Assembly (NCBI GenBank): GCA_042216675.1
Contig: JBDGTS010000026.1
Coordinates: forward strand, 1-20,770
Length of the DNA stretch: 20,770 nt
Direction of reading: 5' to 3'
DNA from: Halobacteriaceae archaeon
Lineage (GTDB): Archaea > Halobacteriota > Halobacteria > Halobacteriales > Halobacteriaceae
Part shown: positions 6,086 through 17,111 of the stretch, one piece after another
Position numbering within the stretch: position 1 is the stretch's first letter
Layout: each line of letters begins with the position of its first letter
Position numbers and translations under genes: made by a program
Notes under the pieces: generated by a model
What the model was told of the DNA's origin: nothing
The model's database searches: none
What the model saw: only the letters and a program-made list of their open reading frames with translations

Positions 6086-7636
6086 ATGACGATGGAGGAC
6101 CGCATCGAGGACCTCCGGGAGCGCCGCCGGGAGGCACTCAAGGGCGGCGGCGAGGAGCGCATCGAGCGACAGCACGAGAAGGGGAAGATGACCGCGCGCG
6201 AGCGCATCGACTACTTCCTCGACGACGGCACGTTCCACGAGTTCGACCAACTCCGCACGCACCGGAACCACAATTTCGGGATGGAGGAGTGCCAGATTCC
6301 CGGGGACGGCGTCGTCACCGGCTACGGCGACGTGGACGGCCGGAAGGTGTTCGTCTTCGCGCACGACTTCACCGTGTTCGGCGGGTCGCTCGGGGAAGTC
6401 CTCGCGGAGAAGGTGACGAAGGTGATGGACACGGCGATGGAAGTCGGCGCGCCCATCATCGGTCTGAACGACTCCGCGGGCGCCCGGATTCAGGAGGGCG
6501 TCGACGCGCTGGCGGGCTTCACGGAGATCTTCCACCGCAACCAACAGGCCAGCGGCGTCGTGCCCCAGATTTCGGCCATCATGGGGCCGTGCGCTGGCGG
6601 GGCCGTCTACTCCCCCTCCATCACGGACTTCATCTTCATGGTGCAGGACACCAGCCACATGTACATCACCGGCCCCGGCGTCACGAAGACGGTGACCGGT
6701 GAGGACGTGACCCACGAGGAACTCGGGGGCGCGATGACCCACGCCTCGAAGACGGGCATCGCGGACGTGGCCGCGGAGGACGAGGAGGCCGCTCTCGACG
6801 GCATCCGGCGCCTGCTCTCCTACCTGCCACAGAACAACGTCGAGGACCCGCCGCGCGTGGACCCGTGGGACGACCCGGAGCGCCGCGACGAATCGCTCGA
6901 AACGGTCGTCCCCGACAGCCCACAACAGCCCTACGACATGACGGACGTGGTGGGCGGCGTCGTGGACGAGGGGTCGTTCTTCGAGGTGGGGGGAAACTTC
7001 GCCAAGAACCTCGTCGTCGGCTTCGCGCGCCTCGACGGGCGCTCGGTGGGCGTCGTCGCGAACCAACCGCGGGTCAACGCCGGCACCCTCACCGTCGACT
7101 CCTCGCTGAAGGGCTCTCGCTTCGTCCGCTTCTGTGACTCGTTTAACATCCCCATCGTGACGTTCGTCGACGTGCCCGGCTACATGCCCGGTACCGAGCA
7201 GGAACACCGGGGAATCATCCGTCACGGCGCGAAACTGCTCTACGCGTACTCGGAGGCGACGGTGCCCCTGCTGACGGTCATCACGCGGAAGGCCTACGGC
7301 GGCGCGTACTGCGTCATGGCGTCGAAACATCTCGGCGCGGACGTGAACTACGCGTGGCCCACCGCCGAAATCGCGGTGATGGGGCCACAGGGCGCAGTCA
7401 ACCTCCTCTACAGCGACGAACTGGAGGCCGCCGACGACCCCGACGAACTTCGGGACCAACTCATCGAGGAGTACCGCGAGGAGTTCGCCAACCCGTACAC
7501 GGCGGCCGACCGGGGCTTCCTCGACGACGTCATCGAACCGACGGAGACGCGCCCCCGCCTCATCGACGACTTGGAGATGCTGTCGAGCAAGCGCGTGGAC
7601 GGGCCGGACAAGAAACACGGCAACATCCCGCTATGA
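6086..7636 (+). CDS. pccB: Propionyl/acyl-CoA carboxylase carboxyltransferase subunit
   Basis: [38 protein letters not shown] and C-terminal KKHGNIPL. Confidence 0.96.
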
Positions 7637-7884
7637 CTGACCTCCACGTCCCCGACACCGCCACCGACGAGGAGGCGGCCGCCATCGCCGCCGCCGTCGG
7701 TGCGCATCTGCAGGCCGAACGCGCCGCCGCGGCCGCCACGGCGGGCGAGGGTGCCGAGTCGTGGGACGGCGAGCGCTGGCGCTTCGCGGGACGCGTCGCC
7801 GCGACTGACGGTCGGTCGGCCAGAGTTCCCGAGGGGGCGCCGACGGACGCGTGGACGGCCGCGGGCCGCGCGGACCGCTTTTGA
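7633..7884 (+). CDS. pccX: Small acyl-CoA carboxylase subunit (PccX / epsilon-like), 83 aa
   Basis: ATG at 7633 overlaps the pccB stop (ATGA). [22 protein letters not shown]...W...W.FAGR...[12 protein letters not shown] fits haloarchaeal PccX. The track's start at 7354 is spurious. Confidence 0.88.
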
Positions 7885-7929
7885 AGGGCGACCGATAGAG
7901 TCAGGTATCTCCCTGTCAGAGACGCCCGT

Positions 7930-9708
7930 ATGTTTCACAAGGTTCTCGTCGCCAACCGGGGCGAGATCGCGGTTCGCGTGATGCGGGCCTGTGAGGAGTT
8001 GGGGGTGAACACCGTCGCCGTGTACAGCGACGCGGACAAGCAGGCGGGGCACGTCCGCTACGCCGACGAGGCCTACAACGTCGGGCCGGCGCGGTCCGCC
8101 GACTCCTATCTCGACGGCGAGGCCATCATCGACGCCGCAAAGCGGGCCGGCGCCGAGGCCATCCACCCGGGCTACGGCTTCCTCGCGGAGAACGCCGACT
8201 TCGCCCGCCGCGTCGAGGACTCGCCCATCACATGGATCGGCCCGCCCAGCGACGCGATGGAGACGCTGGGGGAGAAGACGAAGGCGCGCACGCTGATGCA
8301 GGAGGCCGACGTGCCCGTCGTCCCCGGGACCACCGACCCCGTCGAGAGTCCGGAGGCGGTGCGCGAACTCGGCGAGGAGTTCGGCTATCCCATCGCCATC
8401 AAGGCCGAGGGCGGAGGCGGCGGCCGCGGCTTGAAGGTCGTCCGCGAACCCGAGTCCGTCGAGGAGGCCTTCGAGAGCGCCAAGCGCGAGGGCGAGGCGT
8501 ACTTCGACGACCCCTCCGTCTACGTCGAGAAGTACCTCGCTGACCCGCGCCACATCGAGGTTCAGATTCTCGCCGACCACCACGGCAACGTCCGCCACCT
8601 CGGAGAGCGCGACTGCTCGCTCCAGCGTCGCCACCAGAAGGTCATCGAGGAGGGTCCCAGCCCCGCCCTCGACGCCGCCACGCGCTCTGAAATCGGGGCC
8701 GCGGCGCGCCGGGGCATCGCCGCGGCCGACTACGCCAACGCGGCCACCGTGGAGTTCCTCGTCGAGGACGGCGAGTTCTACTTCATGGAGGTGAACACCC
8801 GGATCCAGGTCGAGCACACCGTCACGGAGATGCTGACAGGCATCGACATCGTGAAGTGGCAACTTCGCATCGCCGCCGGCGACGAACTCGCCTTCGACCA
8901 AGGGGACGTGAGCCTCACCGGGCACGCGATGGAGTTCCGCATCAACGCCGAACACGCCGCCGACGACTTCCAACCGGTCGTCGGCGGCTCCCTCGACACG
9001 TACGACCCGCCGGGCGGCATCGGCGTGCGCGTCGACGACGCCCTCCGGCAGGGCGACGAACTCGTGACCGACTACGACTCGATGGTGGCGAAACTCATCG
9101 TCCACGGGAGCGACCGAGACGAGTGCGTCGCGCGCGCCGACAGGGCCCTCCGAGAGTACGACGTGGAGGGCGTGACGACCATCATCCCGTTCCACCGCCT
9201 GATGCTCACCGACGAGACGTTCCTCGCCGGGGAGCACTCGACGAAGTATCTCGACCAGAAACTCGACCCGACGCGCATCGCGGAGGCCGTCGAGCGGTGG
9301 GGCACGGGCGGCCGCCCCGAGGCCGAGGAGGCGGACACCGTCGAACGCACCTTCACCGTCGAAGTCGACGGGAAGCGCTTCGAGGTGGACGTAGAGGAAC
9401 ACGACCCGCCGGGGGTCACGGCCGCGACCGAACCGTCGCCCGCCGAACCCCCCGCACGGGCCGGCGGCGAGGAGACGGCCGCGAGCGGCGAGGGCGGCGA
9501 GGAGATCACCGCCGAGATGCAGGGCACCATCCTCTCCGTCGACGTCGAGGAGGGCGACGAGGTGGCCGCCGGCGACGTGGTCTGTGTGCTGGAAGCGATG
9601 AAGATGGAGAACGACGTGGTGTCGTCCCGCGGCGGCACCGTCTCCCGCATCGCCACGTCCGAGGGCGAGAGCGTCGACATGGGCGACCTGCTGGTGGTGT
9701 TGGAGTAG
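7930..9708 (+). CDS. pccA: Biotin carboxylase / biotin carboxyl carrier fusion subunit
   Basis: [49 protein letters not shown] and biotinylation motif EAMKM. Confidence 0.96.
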
Positions 9709-10629
9709 ATGTCCGAGACGCGGCGCGCGGTCCTCGCGGCCCTCGCGGACGGCCCCGTGCCCGGTCCGAAACTCGCGGACCGACTCGGCATCTCGCGGGC
9801 CGCCGTCTGGAAACACGTCGAGGCGCTCCGGGACGCGGGCTTCAGCGTCGAGAGCGGCGACGAGGGGTACGAAATCACCGACGTGCCCGACTACGGCGCT
9901 CTCGCCGTCGAGTACGGTCTCGACGCGCCGTTCAGCGTCGAGTACCACGAGGCCCTCGACAGCACGAACGAACGGGCGCGGGAACTGGCCGCCGATGGCG
10001 AGACGGACGTGGTGGTCCTCGCCGACAGACAAACCGCGGGTCGGGGGCGCCTCGACCGCGAGTGGGCGTCGCCGACCGGCGGCGTCTGGATGAGCGTCCT
10101 CGTGCGCCCGGCCCTGCCCGCGCCGCGGGTGCCCGTCCTGACCCTCGCCGCGGCCGTCGCCGTCACCGAGGCCGTCCGCGAGTTGGGCGTCGACGCGGGC
10201 ATCAAGTGGCCCAACGACGTCCTCCTCGACGGCGAGAAACTGGCCGGCGTCCTCACGGAGATGGAGGGCGAGGCCGACCGCGTCTCGTGGGTCGTCCTCG
10301 GAATCGGCCTGAACGCGAACGTCGACGCCGCGTCGCTCCCCGAGGGAGCGACGAGTCTACAGGCCGCCGTCGGAGAGGTGGACCGGCGCGCACTCGTTCG
10401 GCGCATCCTCGACGCCTTCGACGACGTGCGCGACGACCCGGACCGCGCCCTCGAGTTGTGGCGTGAGTACGCCGATACCCTCGGTCGCCGGGTGCGCGTC
10501 GACACGCCCTCGGGCGCAATCGAGGGGGAGGCGGTGGACGTGACCGACGCCGGTGCGCTCGTCGTCGACACCGATGACGGCCGCGAGACGGTCCACGCCG
10601 GCGACTGCGAACACCTCAGGCCGACGTGA
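9709..10629 (+). CDS. birA: Biotin--protein ligase with N-terminal HTH
   Basis: LGISRAAVWKHVEALR HTH, STN, QTAGRGR, KWPND and KLAGVL; abuts the pccA stop. Confidence 0.95.
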   Translation: MSETRRAVLAALADGPVPGPKLADRLGISRAAVWKHVEALRDAGFSVESGDEGYEITDVPDYGALAVEYGLDAPFSVEYHEALDSTNERARELAADGETDVVVLADRQTAGRGRLDREWASPTGGVWMSVLVRPALPAPRVPVLTLAAAVAVTEAVRELGVDAGIKWPNDVLLDGEKLAGVLTEMEGEADRVSWVVLGIGLNANVDAASLPEGATSLQAAVGEVDRRALVRRILDAFDDVRDDPDRALELWREYADTLGRRVRVDTPSGAIEGEAVDVTDAGALVVDTDDGRETVHAGDCEHLRPT

Positions 10630-13885: not shown

Positions 13886-13920
13886 CCATAAACGTCGGCC
13901 GCGGGGCGCAAGCGTTTAGC
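13886..13920. promoter_or_regulatory. Back-to-back TATA-like boxes for the HD gene (-) and cofD (+)
   Basis: GTTTAT on the - strand (13888-13893) and TTTA on the + strand (13915-13918), each about 27 nt from its start codon, in an 81-bp gap. Confidence 0.55.
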
Positions 13921-13943: not shown

Positions 13944-14936
13944 ATGGTGACGTTTCTCGCCGGGGGCACGGGGACCCCGAAACTGCTCGCGGGCGCCCGG
14001 GACGTCTTCGACCCCGCCGAGGCGACAGTCGTCTGCAACACCGGCGACGACGTGGAACTCGGCGGCCTCCTCGTCTGCCCCGACGTGGACACCGTCCTGT
14101 TCGAGGGCGGTGACGTCCTCGACAGGGAGACGTGGTGGGGCATCGCCGGCGACACCGCGACCACGCACGACGAACTCCGCGCTCTCGCGGACGCGGCGGG
14201 TCTCGACGGCGGGCCGCGCTACCTCGACGCCGAGGCGCAGACGGCGGGCCGCGACATCGCCCGCTGGCGGCGCTTCTCCGGCGTCGCAGAGTTCATGCAC
14301 ATCGGCGACAGGGACCGTGCGGTCCACGTCACGCGGACGAGCCTCCTCGACGAGGGGCACACGCTGACCGAGGCCACCCGGACGCTCGCGGACGCCTTCG
14401 ACGTGACGGCCGACGTGGTGCCGATGAGCGACGACCCGGTGGCGACTATCGTCCACACGCCCGACGGCGAGATGCACTTTCAGGCGTTCTGGGTCGGTCA
14501 CGGCGGCGAACCCGAAATCGCGGACGTGGAGTTCCGCGGCGCCGAGGACGCCGCGGCGGCCCCGGCCGCCGTCGAGGCCATCCGCGACGGCCCCGTCGTC
14601 GTCGGCCCGTCGAACCCGGTGACGAGCATCGGGCCGATGCTGGCCCTCGACGGCATCCGCGAGGCCCTCGCCGAGACGACCGTCGTCGCCGTCTCGCCCT
14701 TCGTCGAGGACGACGTGTTCTCCGGCCCGGCCGCCGACCTCATGGCCGCGACGGGGCGCGACCCCTCGACGGCGGGCGTCGCCGCGACCTACCCCTTCGC
14801 CGACGCCTTCGTTCTGGACGACGCCGACGGCACCGAGCTGGACAGGCCCGCCGTCTCCACGGACACCGAGATGCACGACGGCGCGGACGCCCGGCGGGTC
14901 GCCGAGGCCGTCCGGGCGGCGCTGGAGGTGGCCTGA
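13944..14936 (+). CDS. cofD: 2-phospho-L-lactate transferase (F420 biosynthesis)
   Basis: [33 protein letters not shown], HFQxFWV and [13 protein letters not shown]. Confidence 0.94.
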
Positions 14937-15667
14937 TGTTCGCGCCGCGTCTCGCACTCGCCAGCCTCAGCGGCGAGTCCGACGCCGAGTGGGCCCGCGC
15001 CGGCGCCGCGTACGCGGGCGCGGCGTTCCTCGGCGGCATCGCCCTCGACGACCCCACGCGCGACGCGGCCCGGCGGATGGTCCGTGACCGCGACCGGACG
15101 GAGTTCCTGCCCGACGACCCCCTCGCCTTCGTGGACCGCGAACTCGGGGCGCTCTCTGACGCGCCCCTCCGGCCGGCGTTCAACGTCCGCGCGACGCGGC
15201 CCGCCCCGGTGCGCGAGGCGGCGGCCGTCTGCGCTGACCACGGCGCCATCTGCGAGGTGAACGCTCACTGCCGACAGGACGAGATGTGCGCGGCCGGGGC
15301 GGGCGAGTCGCTCCTGCAGGACGGCGCGCGCCTCGCGGAACTGGTCGCCGCCGCGGCCGACGCGGGCGCCGACGTGAGCGTGAAAGTTCGCACCGAAGTC
15401 GAGGGCGTAGACCTGCCCGAACTCGGCGCGCGCCTCGCCGACGCCGGCGCGGCCGTCCTCCACGTCGACGCGATGGACTCCGAACCCGTTATCGCGGACG
15501 TGGCCGACGCCGCGGACTGCTTCCTCGTGGCCAACAACGGCGTGCGCGACGCCGAGACGGTCAGCGAGTACCTCGACTACGGCGCCGACGCCGTGAGCGT
15601 CGGTCGACCGAGCGACGACCCCGACGTGTTGGCCCGCGTGGCCGCGGCCGTCCCGGACGATTCTTGA
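14936..15667 (+). CDS. Dihydrouridine-synthase-like FMN TIM-barrel protein (archaeal NifR3-related/MJ0144 type), 243 aa
   Basis: ATG overlaps the cofD stop (TGATG). Motifs EVNAHCRQ, GAGESLL, VSVKVR, LHVDAM, ANNGVRD and GADAVSVGR. Confidence 0.85.
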   Translation: MFAPRLALASLSGESDAEWARAGAAYAGAAFLGGIALDDPTRDAARRMVRDRDRTEFLPDDPLAFVDRELGALSDAPLRPAFNVRATRPAPVREAAAVCADHGAICEVNAHCRQDEMCAAGAGESLLQDGARLAELVAAAADAGADVSVKVRTEVEGVDLPELGARLADAGAAVLHVDAMDSEPVIADVADAADCFLVANNGVRDAETVSEYLDYGADAVSVGRPSDDPDVLARVAAAVPDDS

Positions 15668-15690
15668 CGGGGCGCACCGAACCCCGCCCC

Positions 15691-16521
15691 ATGCGAACCC
15701 CCGCCGAGAACGCGCAACTCGCTTTGCTGGCGGAGGTGGCGGGCACCCCCAAACCCGGCAACGTGGACCGTGTGCGGGACCTGCCGGACCTCCGCTTCGA
15801 GCACTTCCTCGCGGGCGCCGTCGGCGCGGGCGCGGGCCTCCGGGCCGCCGAGGACGGCGCGCCGGTCGGGGACGCCTTCGAGACGGCCGTCGCCGGGATG
15901 GCCGACCAAGAGGGCAGGAACACGCAGTTCGGGGCGCTCCTCCTCCTCGTGCCACTCGTCCGTGCCGCGAGCGAGGGCGACGTGGCCGACGCACCCGCCG
16001 TGACCGAGGGGACGACTGTCGGCGACGCCGCCGCCTTCTACCGCGCCTTCGAACACGTCGACGTCCACGCGGGTGACCCGCCGGCCGACGCCGACGACGT
16101 GGACGTGCGCCGCGGTGCGGACGCGGTGCCGGCGGTCCGAGAGCGCGGGTTGACTCTCCACGACGTGATGGCCCTCGGCGCCGAGAGCGACGACGTGGCC
16201 GCGGAGTGGACGGGCAACTTCGACCGCACCTTCCGCGCCGCGGACCTGATAGCCGACGCCGAGGGGTCGCTCGGGGACCGTGCGGCGACGGCGTATCTCG
16301 AACTGTTGGCCGAGAAGCCCGACACCCTCGTCGCGACGCGGGCCGGCCCCGAGACGGCCAGCGAGGTGCGGGAGCGAGCGGCCGAACTGCTCGGTGCGGA
16401 CCGGGCCGCCGTCGAGGCGTTCGCCGACGAACTGGTCGAACGCGGCGTCAACCCCGGTACGACAGCGGACCTCGTCGCGGCGGGCCTGTTCGTGGCGCTC
16501 CAACGGGGGGTGTCGGTGTGA
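15691..16521 (+). CDS. CitG-family (triphosphoribosyl-dephospho-CoA synthase-like) protein, 276 aa
   Basis: ATG at 15691; LAEV..PKPGNVDR, NTQFG and NPGTTADL motifs. Confidence 0.87.
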   Translation: MRTPAENAQLALLAEVAGTPKPGNVDRVRDLPDLRFEHFLAGAVGAGAGLRAAEDGAPVGDAFETAVAGMADQEGRNTQFGALLLLVPLVRAASEGDVADAPAVTEGTTVGDAAAFYRAFEHVDVHAGDPPADADDVDVRRGADAVPAVRERGLTLHDVMALGAESDDVAAEWTGNFDRTFRAADLIADAEGSLGDRAATAYLELLAEKPDTLVATRAGPETASEVRERAAELLGADRAAVEAFADELVERGVNPGTTADLVAAGLFVALQRGVSV

Positions 16522-17111
16522 CCGACTGGCCCGTCGCTCTCCGGGGTGTGACGGAGACGGTGACGACGACGCGTGGGCCCGACGGCGCGTGGAACGCCGC
16601 GGCGCTGGGGGTCCACGCCGGCGACCCGGCGACGGCGAAAACGTGGGGCGGCACCCGGACCCGCCGCAACTTCGAGCGAGAGAGCGGGGGGTACGTCCAG
16701 TTCGTCCGCGACCCGGTGCTGTTCGCGGAGGCGGCCCTCGGCGTGCGCGAGGTTTCGGAGCCGATTTTGGACGCCGCCGACGCGTGGGCGCAGGTCGAGG
16801 TGGCGCGCGTGGACTCGGGGGTCACGGATGGCACCGAGTGGGTCGAGTGGGCGCTGTCGCCCGCGGAGAGCGCCGTCGAGAAACGAACCGTGCCGACGAC
16901 GAACCGCGGCTACGGCGCCGTGGTGGAGGCGACTGTGGCCGCCTCGCGACTCGGTGTCGCCGGCTACGACGACGCTCGGCTCCGGGCGCGCCTCGACTAC
17001 TTCGACGGCGTCGTCAGACGGTGTGGCGGCGCACGCGAGCGCACGGCGATAGACCGGGTGGCCGCGCTGAGCGACTGGGACCGGGGCGCGTCGCGGAACG
17101 AACCATTTTAA
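16518..17111 (+). CDS. DUF447 family protein (flavin-binding split-barrel-like), 197 aa
   Basis: GTG at 16518 overlaps the citG-like stop (GTGA). Motifs ETVTTT..WNAAALG, TRTRRNF, DPVLF and NRGYGAVVEATVAASRL. Confidence 0.82.
   Translation: MTDWPVALRGVTETVTTTRGPDGAWNAAALGVHAGDPATAKTWGGTRTRRNFERESGGYVQFVRDPVLFAEAALGVREVSEPILDAADAWAQVEVARVDSGVTDGTEWVEWALSPAESAVEKRTVPTTNRGYGAVVEATVAASRLGVAGYDDARLRARLDYFDGVVRRCGGARERTAIDRVAALSDWDRGASRNEPF

Follow-up and report, generated by a model that had tools for sequence, protein, structure and literature searches.

Why should a gene of coenzyme F420 biosynthesis head a run of three orphan enzyme genes in an archaeon whose relatives are regarded as folate users? 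The question is raised by positions 13944-17111 of a 20,770-nt stretch of DNA from a Halobacteriaceae archaeon (the window; contig C39 of genome G000, with a high GC content of 0.65-0.76), where four co-oriented + strand genes can be read from the sequence: cofD, a gene for a protein resembling dihydrouridine synthase (Dus-like), a CitG-like gene and a DUF447 gene. The genome is a 2.15 Mb assembly in 58 contigs and is 80% complete. We see from natural gene losses that the four genes do not behave as one unit. We put the probability of a two-module explanation, in which the whole is a vertically inherited version of an older archaeal ‘cofactor-tail’ operon, at roughly 0.5.

Presence and absence were profiled across the class in a set of 150 high-quality genomes. 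Of these, 146 carry DUF447; it is missing from G004, G010 and G020, which belong to one genus, and from G023, which belongs to another. The family of MptG, the β-ribofuranosylaminobenzene 5'-phosphate (β-RFAP) synthase, is likewise found in 146 genomes and is missing from exactly the same four, giving agreement with DUF447 in 150/150 genomes. The MptG-like gene is unlinked to DUF447, the two lying ~180 kb apart in G006. Searches of the four loss genomes gave neither a CitG match nor a β-RFAP-synthase match, while all four retain cofD and, immediately adjacent, the Dus-like gene (loci L096-L098), as well as Mch and cofE. The locus of the loss genus reads HD <> cofD-Dus-like-S17e-asd, with the CitG-like and DUF447 genes cleanly gone, and its Dus-like gene keeps 25/25 invariant residues with a ratio of nonsynonymous to synonymous substitution rates (dN/dS) of 0.158. 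The Dus-like gene itself is present in 148/150 genomes; the two that lack it, G005 and G080, have cofD-CitG-like-DUF447. Taken together, these patterns indicate two modules, one of cofD and the Dus-like gene, the other of the CitG-like gene, DUF447 and the unlinked MptG-like gene. This contradicts the first-pass annotation of the locus, in which the three orphans were coupled to cofD as one block. Of the cofactor genes, mptG shares the pattern of the CitG-like and DUF447 genes, and mch, cofE and cofD are kept where these two were lost. Of the ribosylated pterin or deazaflavin cofactor that it envisaged, an RFAP-derived compound of pterin type is the better supported by the module pattern with MptG, and a ribosylated deazaflavin is unlikely because CitG-like and DUF447 vanish with the MptG homologue from genomes that still have cofD and the Dus-like gene.

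The MptG homologue of the window genome scores 159.7 bits against the TIGR00144 subfamily model, compared with a threshold of 113.5. In the haloarchaeal MptG-like loci (L100-L119, e.g. L100:6002-9974), the gene stands at the head of a conserved run, whose other members encode a KaiC/ArlH-like ATPase, a coiled-coil protein, a small protein without an assigned identity and a TFS-like zinc-ribbon protein. Two of these, the KaiC-like ATPase and the TFS-like protein, were each seen in 15/20 loci. These neighbours were considered as further module members and set aside, as none looks biosynthetic. The same was done for the PHP and Metallophos phosphoesterases that occur in the clusters of other lineages, since homologues of both are kept in the loss genomes. 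Pterin_bind paralogues number two per genome in loss genomes and control alike.

Within the haloarchaea, two sets of loci were compared. The sampled set comprises 14-kb stretches around DUF447 from 40 genomes in 9 families of the class, mostly one per genus, on which the window proteins were placed by tblastn. The named set was drawn from the genomes of named species using an alignment of the CitG-like protein as query, and consists of the best 80 of 578 relatives, all haloarchaeal, of which 74 had enough flanking sequence. The first-pass annotation had allowed that the genes might be unlinked in most relatives, and this is not so: the window's four-gene order appears in 30/40 sampled loci, and all four genes are contiguous in 52/74 named loci. 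Recurring in order across 9 families, the arrangement is not due to chance. CitG-like and DUF447 are adjacent in 40/40 sampled and 72/74 named loci; cofD and the Dus-like gene are adjacent in all 32 sampled loci that hold both and in 62/74 named loci; for Dus-like/CitG-like, adjacency was seen in 56/74 named loci. Overlaps of 1 or 4 nt, which depend on heuristic and approximate start calls, were counted at 23/32 cofD-Dus-like, 26/30 Dus-like-CitG-like and 27/39 CitG-like-DUF447 junctions. All four genes are under purifying selection, with dN/dS of 0.11-0.24 in close pairs. In FastTree phylogenies the Dus-like proteins of haloarchaea form a single clade, as do their CitG-like proteins (support 0.997 and 0.998, respectively), which argues that the operon is old in the class and not a recent transfer.

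Ten of the sampled loci depart from this order. L054 and L060 have cofD-CitG-like-DUF447 without a Dus-like gene, L061 and L067 carry an insertion between the cofD/Dus-like and CitG-like/DUF447 pairs, L062, L064, L065, L068 and L069 show just CitG-like-DUF447 in reach, and L053 has no cofD in reach. In broken clusters, which are mostly from Natrialbaceae, each pair is intact and the Dus-like gene always stays with cofD. Genes lying between the split pairs (nitrile hydratase, a hexapeptide transferase, PAS/kinase) were considered as extra module members and discarded as unrelated.

To extend the comparison beyond the class, 100 phylum genomes were sampled and the window genome was added to them (n=101). 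Here cofD is found in 100/101 genomes, DUF447 in 97/101 and the Dus-like family in 68/101. The order Dus-like-CitG-like-DUF447 is seen in 14/17 non-haloarchaeal Dus-like loci, the three exceptions being loci of family f12, where a short MJ0144-type gene lies between dapF and gyrA. Clustering places a gene for a flavoprotein with a 4Fe-4S domain 3' of DUF447 in five non-haloarchaeal loci, confirmed by Pfam in L080 and L083, and also in L200 and L204. This protein resembles DmrX, described in passages of PMC6193120 as a flavin mononucleotide (FMN) iron-sulfur dihydromethanopterin reductase. In family f14 the four genes stand in the same order as in the window and the DmrX-like flavoprotein comes next; genes for a PHP phosphoesterase and for an MptH-like Pterin_bind + DUF4346 protein are nearby.

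The cluster is headed by cofD in f14, f19, f15, f21 and f23. Even without a Dus-like gene, cofD is still attached, as cofD-CitG-like-DUF447-flavoprotein in L200, cofE-cofD-CitG-like-DUF447 in L201, and cofD-DUF763-Metallophos-CitG-like-DUF447 in L202-L204. We take the ancestral-type order to be cofD, then Dus-like or DUF763, CitG-like, DUF447 and the DmrX-like flavoprotein. In the last three of these loci the Dus-like slot is filled by DUF763 (PF05559) and Metallophos genes (L202:5584-6685, L203:4929-6026 and L204:6787-7875). DUF763 is found in 30/33 genomes without the Dus-like family and in 12/68 with it, and 98/101 have at least one of the two. DUF763 may thus be a functional stand-in for the Dus-like gene; the split between them largely follows phylogeny, so this is a lead and not a test.

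Fourteen named control genomes were searched in the same vein. DUF447 and RFAP synthase were matched in M. jannaschii, H. volcanii, S. acidocaldarius and M. acetivorans, and CitG in the same four and E. coli. Matches to cofD (above cut-off), the Dus-like family (E<=1e-15), Mch and cofE were confined to the two methanogens and H. volcanii. The MptH-type DUF4346 was matched in the control methanogens, Sulfolobus and Synechococcus, and DUF763 solely in Sulfolobus. Outside the archaea, two adjacent methylotroph genes, orf5 and orf7, are presumably the counterparts of the CitG-like and DUF447 genes, respectively. Passages of a methanotroph paper describe an mch-orf5-orf7-fae island (PMC3615186), in which orf5/orf7 form an adjacent, unassigned pair tied to a methanopterin-type one-carbon (C1) carrier, much as CitG-like and DUF447 do here. 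The haloarchaeal pair differs in lying behind cofD and a Dus-like gene, in supposed tetrahydrofolate users; none of its neighbours is an mch, fae or MptH-type gene, and genomes that have lost the pair still keep Mch. The statement in the first-pass annotation that CitG-like and DUF447 genes occur in methanopterin-linked clusters nevertheless agrees with this island and with the 14/17 loci above, some of which have a DmrX-like or MptH-like gene beside them.

The identity of cofD is secure at the level of sequence families. [quoted passage not shown] Its third-position GC (GC3) is 0.92-1.0 in frame and its dN/dS in close pairs is 0.18-0.24. The window genome also has cofE, at C27:8911-9636. On C27:7929-9636, cofE (285.9 bits) lies directly 5' of a gene for a Mer-like F420-type reductase (288.7 bits, under the Mer cut-off) on the same strand; Mer-like or cofE genes come within 7-8 kb of the four-gene cluster in just 1/140 loci. 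A second CofD paralogue (142-235 bits, under cut-off) adjoins the true cofD in G152, G181 and G222 of family f11 and in G234 of f28, and may be a transferase of CofD type that acts on a different substrate.

The protein encoded next to cofD is a predicted FMN-binding triosephosphate isomerase (TIM) barrel. It matches PF01207 at 34 bits (cut-off 20.4) and the MJ0144 family model TIGR00736 at 105.8 bits, under the cut-off of 218.7, which is reached by 0/151 genomes of the class. Judged by sequence, the haloarchaeal protein is a divergent short branch of the small MJ0144 family, for which 71 representative clusters were recovered at E<=1e-30 among 1.84 billion proteins. An alignment of 36 sequences gave the invariant motif E-x-x-A-H-C-R-Q, with invariant residues E107, A110, H111, C112, R113, Q114, K150, R152, H176, D178, N200, N201, S221 and R224. 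When solved structures were searched with a profile, DusB, DusC and further Dus enzymes came first, with HisF and dihydroorotate dehydrogenase B (DHODB) among the weaker matches, and C112 and K150 align with the catalytic Cys and Lys of Dus (‘DINMGCP’ and ‘VTLKIR’ in DusB). The AlphaFold model has a predicted local distance difference test (pLDDT) score of 96.8 and consists of the barrel only. Foldseek again places DusB and DusC at the top, and also finds DHODB, Old Yellow Enzyme ene-reductases and dihydropyrimidine dehydrogenase. The matched Dus chains are 306-317 aa long and the template modelling (TM) score, normalised by target length, is 0.52-0.60. The C-terminal helical tRNA-binding domain of Dus is absent from the 243-aa protein and its model.

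The FMN TIM barrel is thus common to Dus (DusB 6ei9, DusC 4bfa), DHODB, Old Yellow Enzyme and the Dus-like protein, the latter standing apart by its want of the tRNA-binding domain and by an identity of 18-23%. By analogy with these enzymes, the expected chemistry would be addition of a hydride and a proton to an activated C=C bond. A comparable reaction is attributed in passages of PMC6450877 to FbiB's C-terminal domain, namely FMN-dependent enolpyruvyl C=C reduction, and it is this reaction that we propose for the Dus-like enzyme. The FbiB domain has a nitroreductase fold and the Dus-like protein, as a TIM barrel, does not belong to that family; as the folds differ, any likeness is one of function only.

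Non-haloarchaeal Dus-like proteins are longer (345-403 aa), their C-terminus being extended by a Cys-rich stretch of ~120 aa without a Pfam match. Its pattern is GWYNAPKH-C...CC-x-P-[VI]-K-x-C ... TCFGS..WCCK...PC (alignment columns about 270-390; L080-L088, L091-L094 and L099), and it is probably an iron-sulfur electron-input domain. The tail is missing from the Dus-like proteins of haloarchaea and of family f12, the MJ0144-type short forms. No long fusion was seen among the best 150 matches to the Dus-like family.

The CitG-like protein matches PF01874 over its full length (216.9 bits, with residues 5-269 covering profile positions 1-284) and in this resembles CitG/MdcB, the triphosphoribosyl-dephospho-CoA synthase (EC 2.4.2.52). 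By analogy, it would probably use ATP to place a 5-triphosphoribosyl group on a sugar hydroxyl, adenine being released. It differs from CitG/MdcB in failing the equivalog models (TIGR03125, TIGR03132, NF002315 and NF007503), which give 23-37 bits, with matches of 31-37 bits at the C-terminus of the protein, against cut-offs of 272-477, and in having no CitX/MdcG partner: CitX (PF03802) was not found in the window genome, and of the 14 control genomes it was matched solely in E. coli. Since the CitG-like gene tracks the RFAP-synthase homologue and not citrate lyase, its acceptor must differ from that of CitG. The sole solved relative is PDB 3h9p (1e-21), an uncharacterised ‘putative triphosphoribosyl-dephospho-CoA synthase’. 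The motifs PKPGN-DR, N-x-x-FG and NPG-x-x-AD do not vary. At L094:5149-6576 (- strand), CitG-like and DUF447 form a single read-through open reading frame of 476 aa, where a congener has them as separate genes. Dus-like and CitG domains are joined in three metagenomic proteins (P0122-P0124, 518-579 aa). All of these, the read-through frame included, are putative fusions and possibly artefacts of sequencing or gene calling. No cofD-Dus-like fusion turned up in the search, a null that is weak evidence.

DUF447 is, according to its model, a split-barrel protein predicted to bind FMN. Both of its domains match above cut-off, DUF447_N (PF04289) at 73.9 bits and DUF447_C (PF20766) at 55.7 bits, and the model has a pLDDT of 92.3. 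By sequence it matches PDB entries 2iml, 2ptf and 2nr4; Foldseek returns the FMN-bound 2iml, 2nr4 (MM1853) and 2ptf and a Rhodopirellula protein, and then NAD(P)H:flavin reductases. MM1853, 2iml (A. fulgidus) and 2ptf (MTH_863) were all crystallised with FMN and share family and fold with the window protein (Foldseek E 3.5e-15 to 5.6e-12 and TM 0.75-0.77 for 2iml and 2nr4), although the identity is just 25-28% and no reaction is assigned to them. DmrX is, we assume, MM1854. Relatives in the phylum have the DmrX-like flavoprotein/4Fe-4S gene 3' of DUF447, whereas neither such a neighbour nor a homologue was found in the window genome. In a homologue search with DUF447, all the organism-named proteins among the matches listed (at least 120) were haloarchaeal, with titles of ‘DUF447 domain-containing protein’ or ‘hypothetical protein’.

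How these proteins might act together is best seen from the methanopterin side chain, in which an arylamine is C-ribosylated, the ribofuranose is reduced to ribitol, an alpha-ribosyl 5-phosphate is added to the ribitol, and a phosphodiester joins this to hydroxyglutarate. From this chemistry we tentatively assign DUF447 to the reduction and the CitG-like protein to the alpha-(5-triphospho)ribosyl transfer. The second module, CitG-like and DUF447 with the unlinked MptG-like homologue, would then make a methanopterin-type aryl-ribitol-ribosyl side chain. The MptG-like enzyme would C-ribosylate an acid of aminobenzoate or hydroxybenzoate type, DUF447 would take part, as an FMN protein, in reducing the ribofuranosyl ring to ribitol, and the CitG-like enzyme would use ATP to place a 5-triphospho-alpha-ribosyl group on the terminal hydroxyl, releasing adenine as CitG does. 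Haloarchaea would in this way make an RFAP-derived compound not previously reported. This product is probably not methanopterin itself, given that an MptH-type enzyme and DmrX are wanting and that Mch is kept where the module is lost. The folate-dependent C1 enzymes of haloarchaea are probably independent of this module, which fits the folate reading of Mch and Mer in passages of PMC8305020.

In the first module, CofD would form the phosphodiester of F420. Less certainly, the Dus-like enzyme may reduce the enolpyruvyl group of phosphoenolpyruvate (PEP), EPPG (enolpyruvyl-diphospho-5'-guanosine) or dehydro-F420-0 to a lactyl group. In bacteria, dehydro-F420-0 is reduced by the FMN domain of FbiB; archaea need a separate reductase (‘CofX’), and CofX and the lactate kinase CofB are described in passages by Bashiri et al. 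(PMC6450877) as never identified. No archaeal enzyme of this kind is named in the excerpts of the 2019-2026 literature that our search returned. The Dus-like protein is a candidate for this archaeal F420 lactyl-tail reductase because its start overlaps cofD, because it is kept with cofD when the second module is lost, because in the controls it is confined to F420 archaea, and because it appears to be a Dus/DHOD-type FMN/Cys ene-reductase; it may instead serve the methanopterin-type branch.

Several observations weigh against these assignments. For the methanopterin-type side chain, the MptH-type DUF4346 (PF14251) was found in 0/5 genomes of haloarchaea and was unmatched in H. volcanii among the controls, and tblastn located no DmrX-like, MptH-like or DUF763 gene in the window genome at its 80% completeness. 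The G006 MptG-like protein lies under the cut-off of the RFAP-synthase equivalog NF040726 (170 vs 328 bits), and the four loss genomes represent just two loss events. No methanopterin-type compound is on record for haloarchaea. Methanopterin-specific enzymes are, according to passages of PMC8305020, absent from haloarchaea, and the MptG homologue HVO_2628 is deemed there not to be isofunctional, such that the tension with folate use pointed out in the first-pass annotation is a real one. For the role of the Dus-like protein as CofX, passages by Hasan et al. (PMC8764529) re-establish 2-phospholactate, and not PEP, as the likely archaeal substrate; they leave its source open and name no producing enzyme. 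Outside haloarchaea the Dus-like gene is mostly found with CitG-like and DUF447 and not with cofD, the Dus-like family is missing from 33/101 phylum genomes though 100/101 have cofD, G005 and G080 have cofD, CitG-like and DUF447 without it, and there are three putative Dus-like-CitG fusion proteins where no cofD-Dus-like fusion was found.

Much of this would be expected if all three orphans, the Dus-like protein included, worked in a methanopterin-type side-chain pathway, with cofD in front merely through co-regulation, F420 and the C1 carrier being produced and used in common, and the F420 tail made independently of the Dus-like enzyme. The Dus-like protein could then, for example, reduce the ribofuranosyl ring with DUF447 as its flavin reductase, and the DUF447 fold is indeed next nearest to NAD(P)H:flavin reductases after its own family. 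Contiguity of Dus-like-CitG-like-DUF447 in 14/17 non-haloarchaeal loci, mostly without cofD, the putative 518-579-aa fusion proteins, and absence of the Dus-like gene from a third of cofD-bearing genomes are all in keeping with such a pathway. What it does not account for is that the four genomes lacking MptG-like, CitG-like and DUF447 keep the Dus-like gene beside cofD, with its invariant residues and a dN/dS of 0.158, that in split operons it always travels with cofD, and that S. acidocaldarius has DUF447, CitG and RFAP synthase and gave no Dus-like match. We consider this explanation unlikely, if still to be reckoned with. Far less credence is due to the idea that the proteins have ordinary, unrelated functions in an inherited gene order, with the Dus-like protein as an RNA dihydrouridine synthase, CitG-like serving a CoA-type prosthetic group and DUF447 as a general flavin reductase. 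The Pfam family names, the NCBIfam title of TIGR00736 (‘RNA dihydrouridine synthase-like’) and the housekeeping neighbours (S17e, asd and the HD-domain gene) suit it; yet the protein is a bare 243-aa barrel that stops short of the C-terminal portion seen in the 306-317-aa Dus structures it matches, the CitG/MdcB equivalog scores are far under their cut-offs, CitX was not found in the genome and among controls was matched by E. coli alone, and the exact pattern shared with the MptG-like gene is left unexplained. We regard it as very improbable.

A further possibility is that the four genes serve one tail chemistry. F420 and methanopterin resemble each other chemically in their phosphodiester-hydroxyacid ends. 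CofD might add a 2-phospho-2-hydroxyacid to a terminal primary hydroxyl both on the deazaflavin precursor FO (as lactyl) and on a ribosylated methanopterin-type precursor (as hydroxyglutaryl). The single-product idea of the first-pass annotation comes close to this; it gains from the deep linkage of cofD and loses from the genomes that keep cofD without CitG-like and DUF447. cofD is joined to CitG-like-DUF447 in at least 6 deep lineages with varied genes between them (the Dus-like gene in haloarchaea and f14, nothing in f19, DUF763 and a phosphoesterase in f15, f21 and f23), and PHP or Metallophos phosphoesterase genes lie inside these clusters. To our knowledge, methylotrophs making dephospho-tetrahydromethanopterin (dephospho-H4MPT) lack cofD. 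A single ancestral gene order, inherited, would however explain the linkage equally well, S. acidocaldarius has the genes of the second module with no CofD above cut-off, the loss genomes still have both phosphoesterase homologues, and there is no biochemical hint of another CofD acceptor. We therefore hold a shared pathway to be improbable. Equally doubtful, or slightly more so, is its fuller form, in which an undescribed RFAP-derived cofactor and F420 share a phospho-hydroxyacid tail, the Dus-like protein being the enolpyruvyl reductase and CofD finishing both the F420 and the methanopterin-type tail.

On the two-module explanation, the operon sets candidates for two cofactor gaps, the methanopterin side chain and the source of the F420 lactyl group, side by side in haloarchaea. 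For the steps that form the ribitol and add the ribosyl group of the side chain, we know of no assigned enzyme. A literature search gave no such assignment either, and returned nothing on cofD with citG or mptG in haloarchaea, on MJ0144, or on CitG in tetrahydromethanopterin biosynthesis. Haloarchaea are aerobic and genetically tractable, unlike most methanogens, and the natural loss lineages already divide the genes into two testable sets. Part of the idea is already in the methylotroph literature; what is new is the haloarchaeal setting, the exact MptG-like pattern, the two-module split, the recurrent attachment of cofD and the Dus-like/DUF763 slot. If the CitG-like/DUF447 module is active, the view in passages of PMC8305020 that haloarchaea lack methanopterin-specific biosynthesis needs revising, as does the annotation of HVO_2628-type proteins.

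Table 1. Features of the four-gene locus, in window coordinates.
Feature	Position	Strand	Details
TTTA, candidate TATA-like element	13915..13918	+	29 nt 5' of the cofD ATG; predicted from sequence alone
cofD, 330 aa	13944..14936	+	ATG 13944, TGA 14934-14936; TIGR01819, PF01933
Dus-like FMN TIM-barrel gene, 243 aa	14936..15667	+	ATG 14936, TGA 15665-15667; PF01207
Spacer between Dus-like and CitG-like, 23 nt	15668..15690	+	read from the sequence
CitG-like gene, 276 aa	15691..16521	+	ATG 15691, TGA 16519-16521; PF01874
DUF447 gene, 197 aa	16518..17111	+	GTG 16518, TAA 17109-17111; PF04289 + PF20766

The layout of the locus is collected in Table 1. The cofD stop and the Dus-like start overlap as TGATG, and the CitG-like stop and the DUF447 start as GTGA. 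Third-position GC of 0.84-1.0 tracks exactly the frames of all four genes, and the gene identities and the TGATG, 23-nt and GTGA junctions given in the first-pass annotation are borne out by the sequence, these frames and the family searches. Within the 23-nt spacer lies an inverted repeat of 6 bp, made up of G and C (GGGGCG at 15669-15674 and CGCCCC at 15685-15690), the final base of which precedes the CitG-like ATG. Upstream, an HD-domain gene lies on the opposite strand, and the TTTA element falls in the 81-nt divergent spacer between it and cofD; a promoter/terminator scan gave no promoter-like site, using a model of sigma-70 and not of archaeal promoters. Downstream are rps17e-like and asd genes. 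Elsewhere in the window, at 6086-10626, genes for a carboxyltransferase, a fusion of biotin carboxylase and biotin carboxyl carrier protein, and a BirA-like biotin ligase with a helix-turn-helix domain stand in a row, forming an ordinary biotin-dependent carboxylase cluster.

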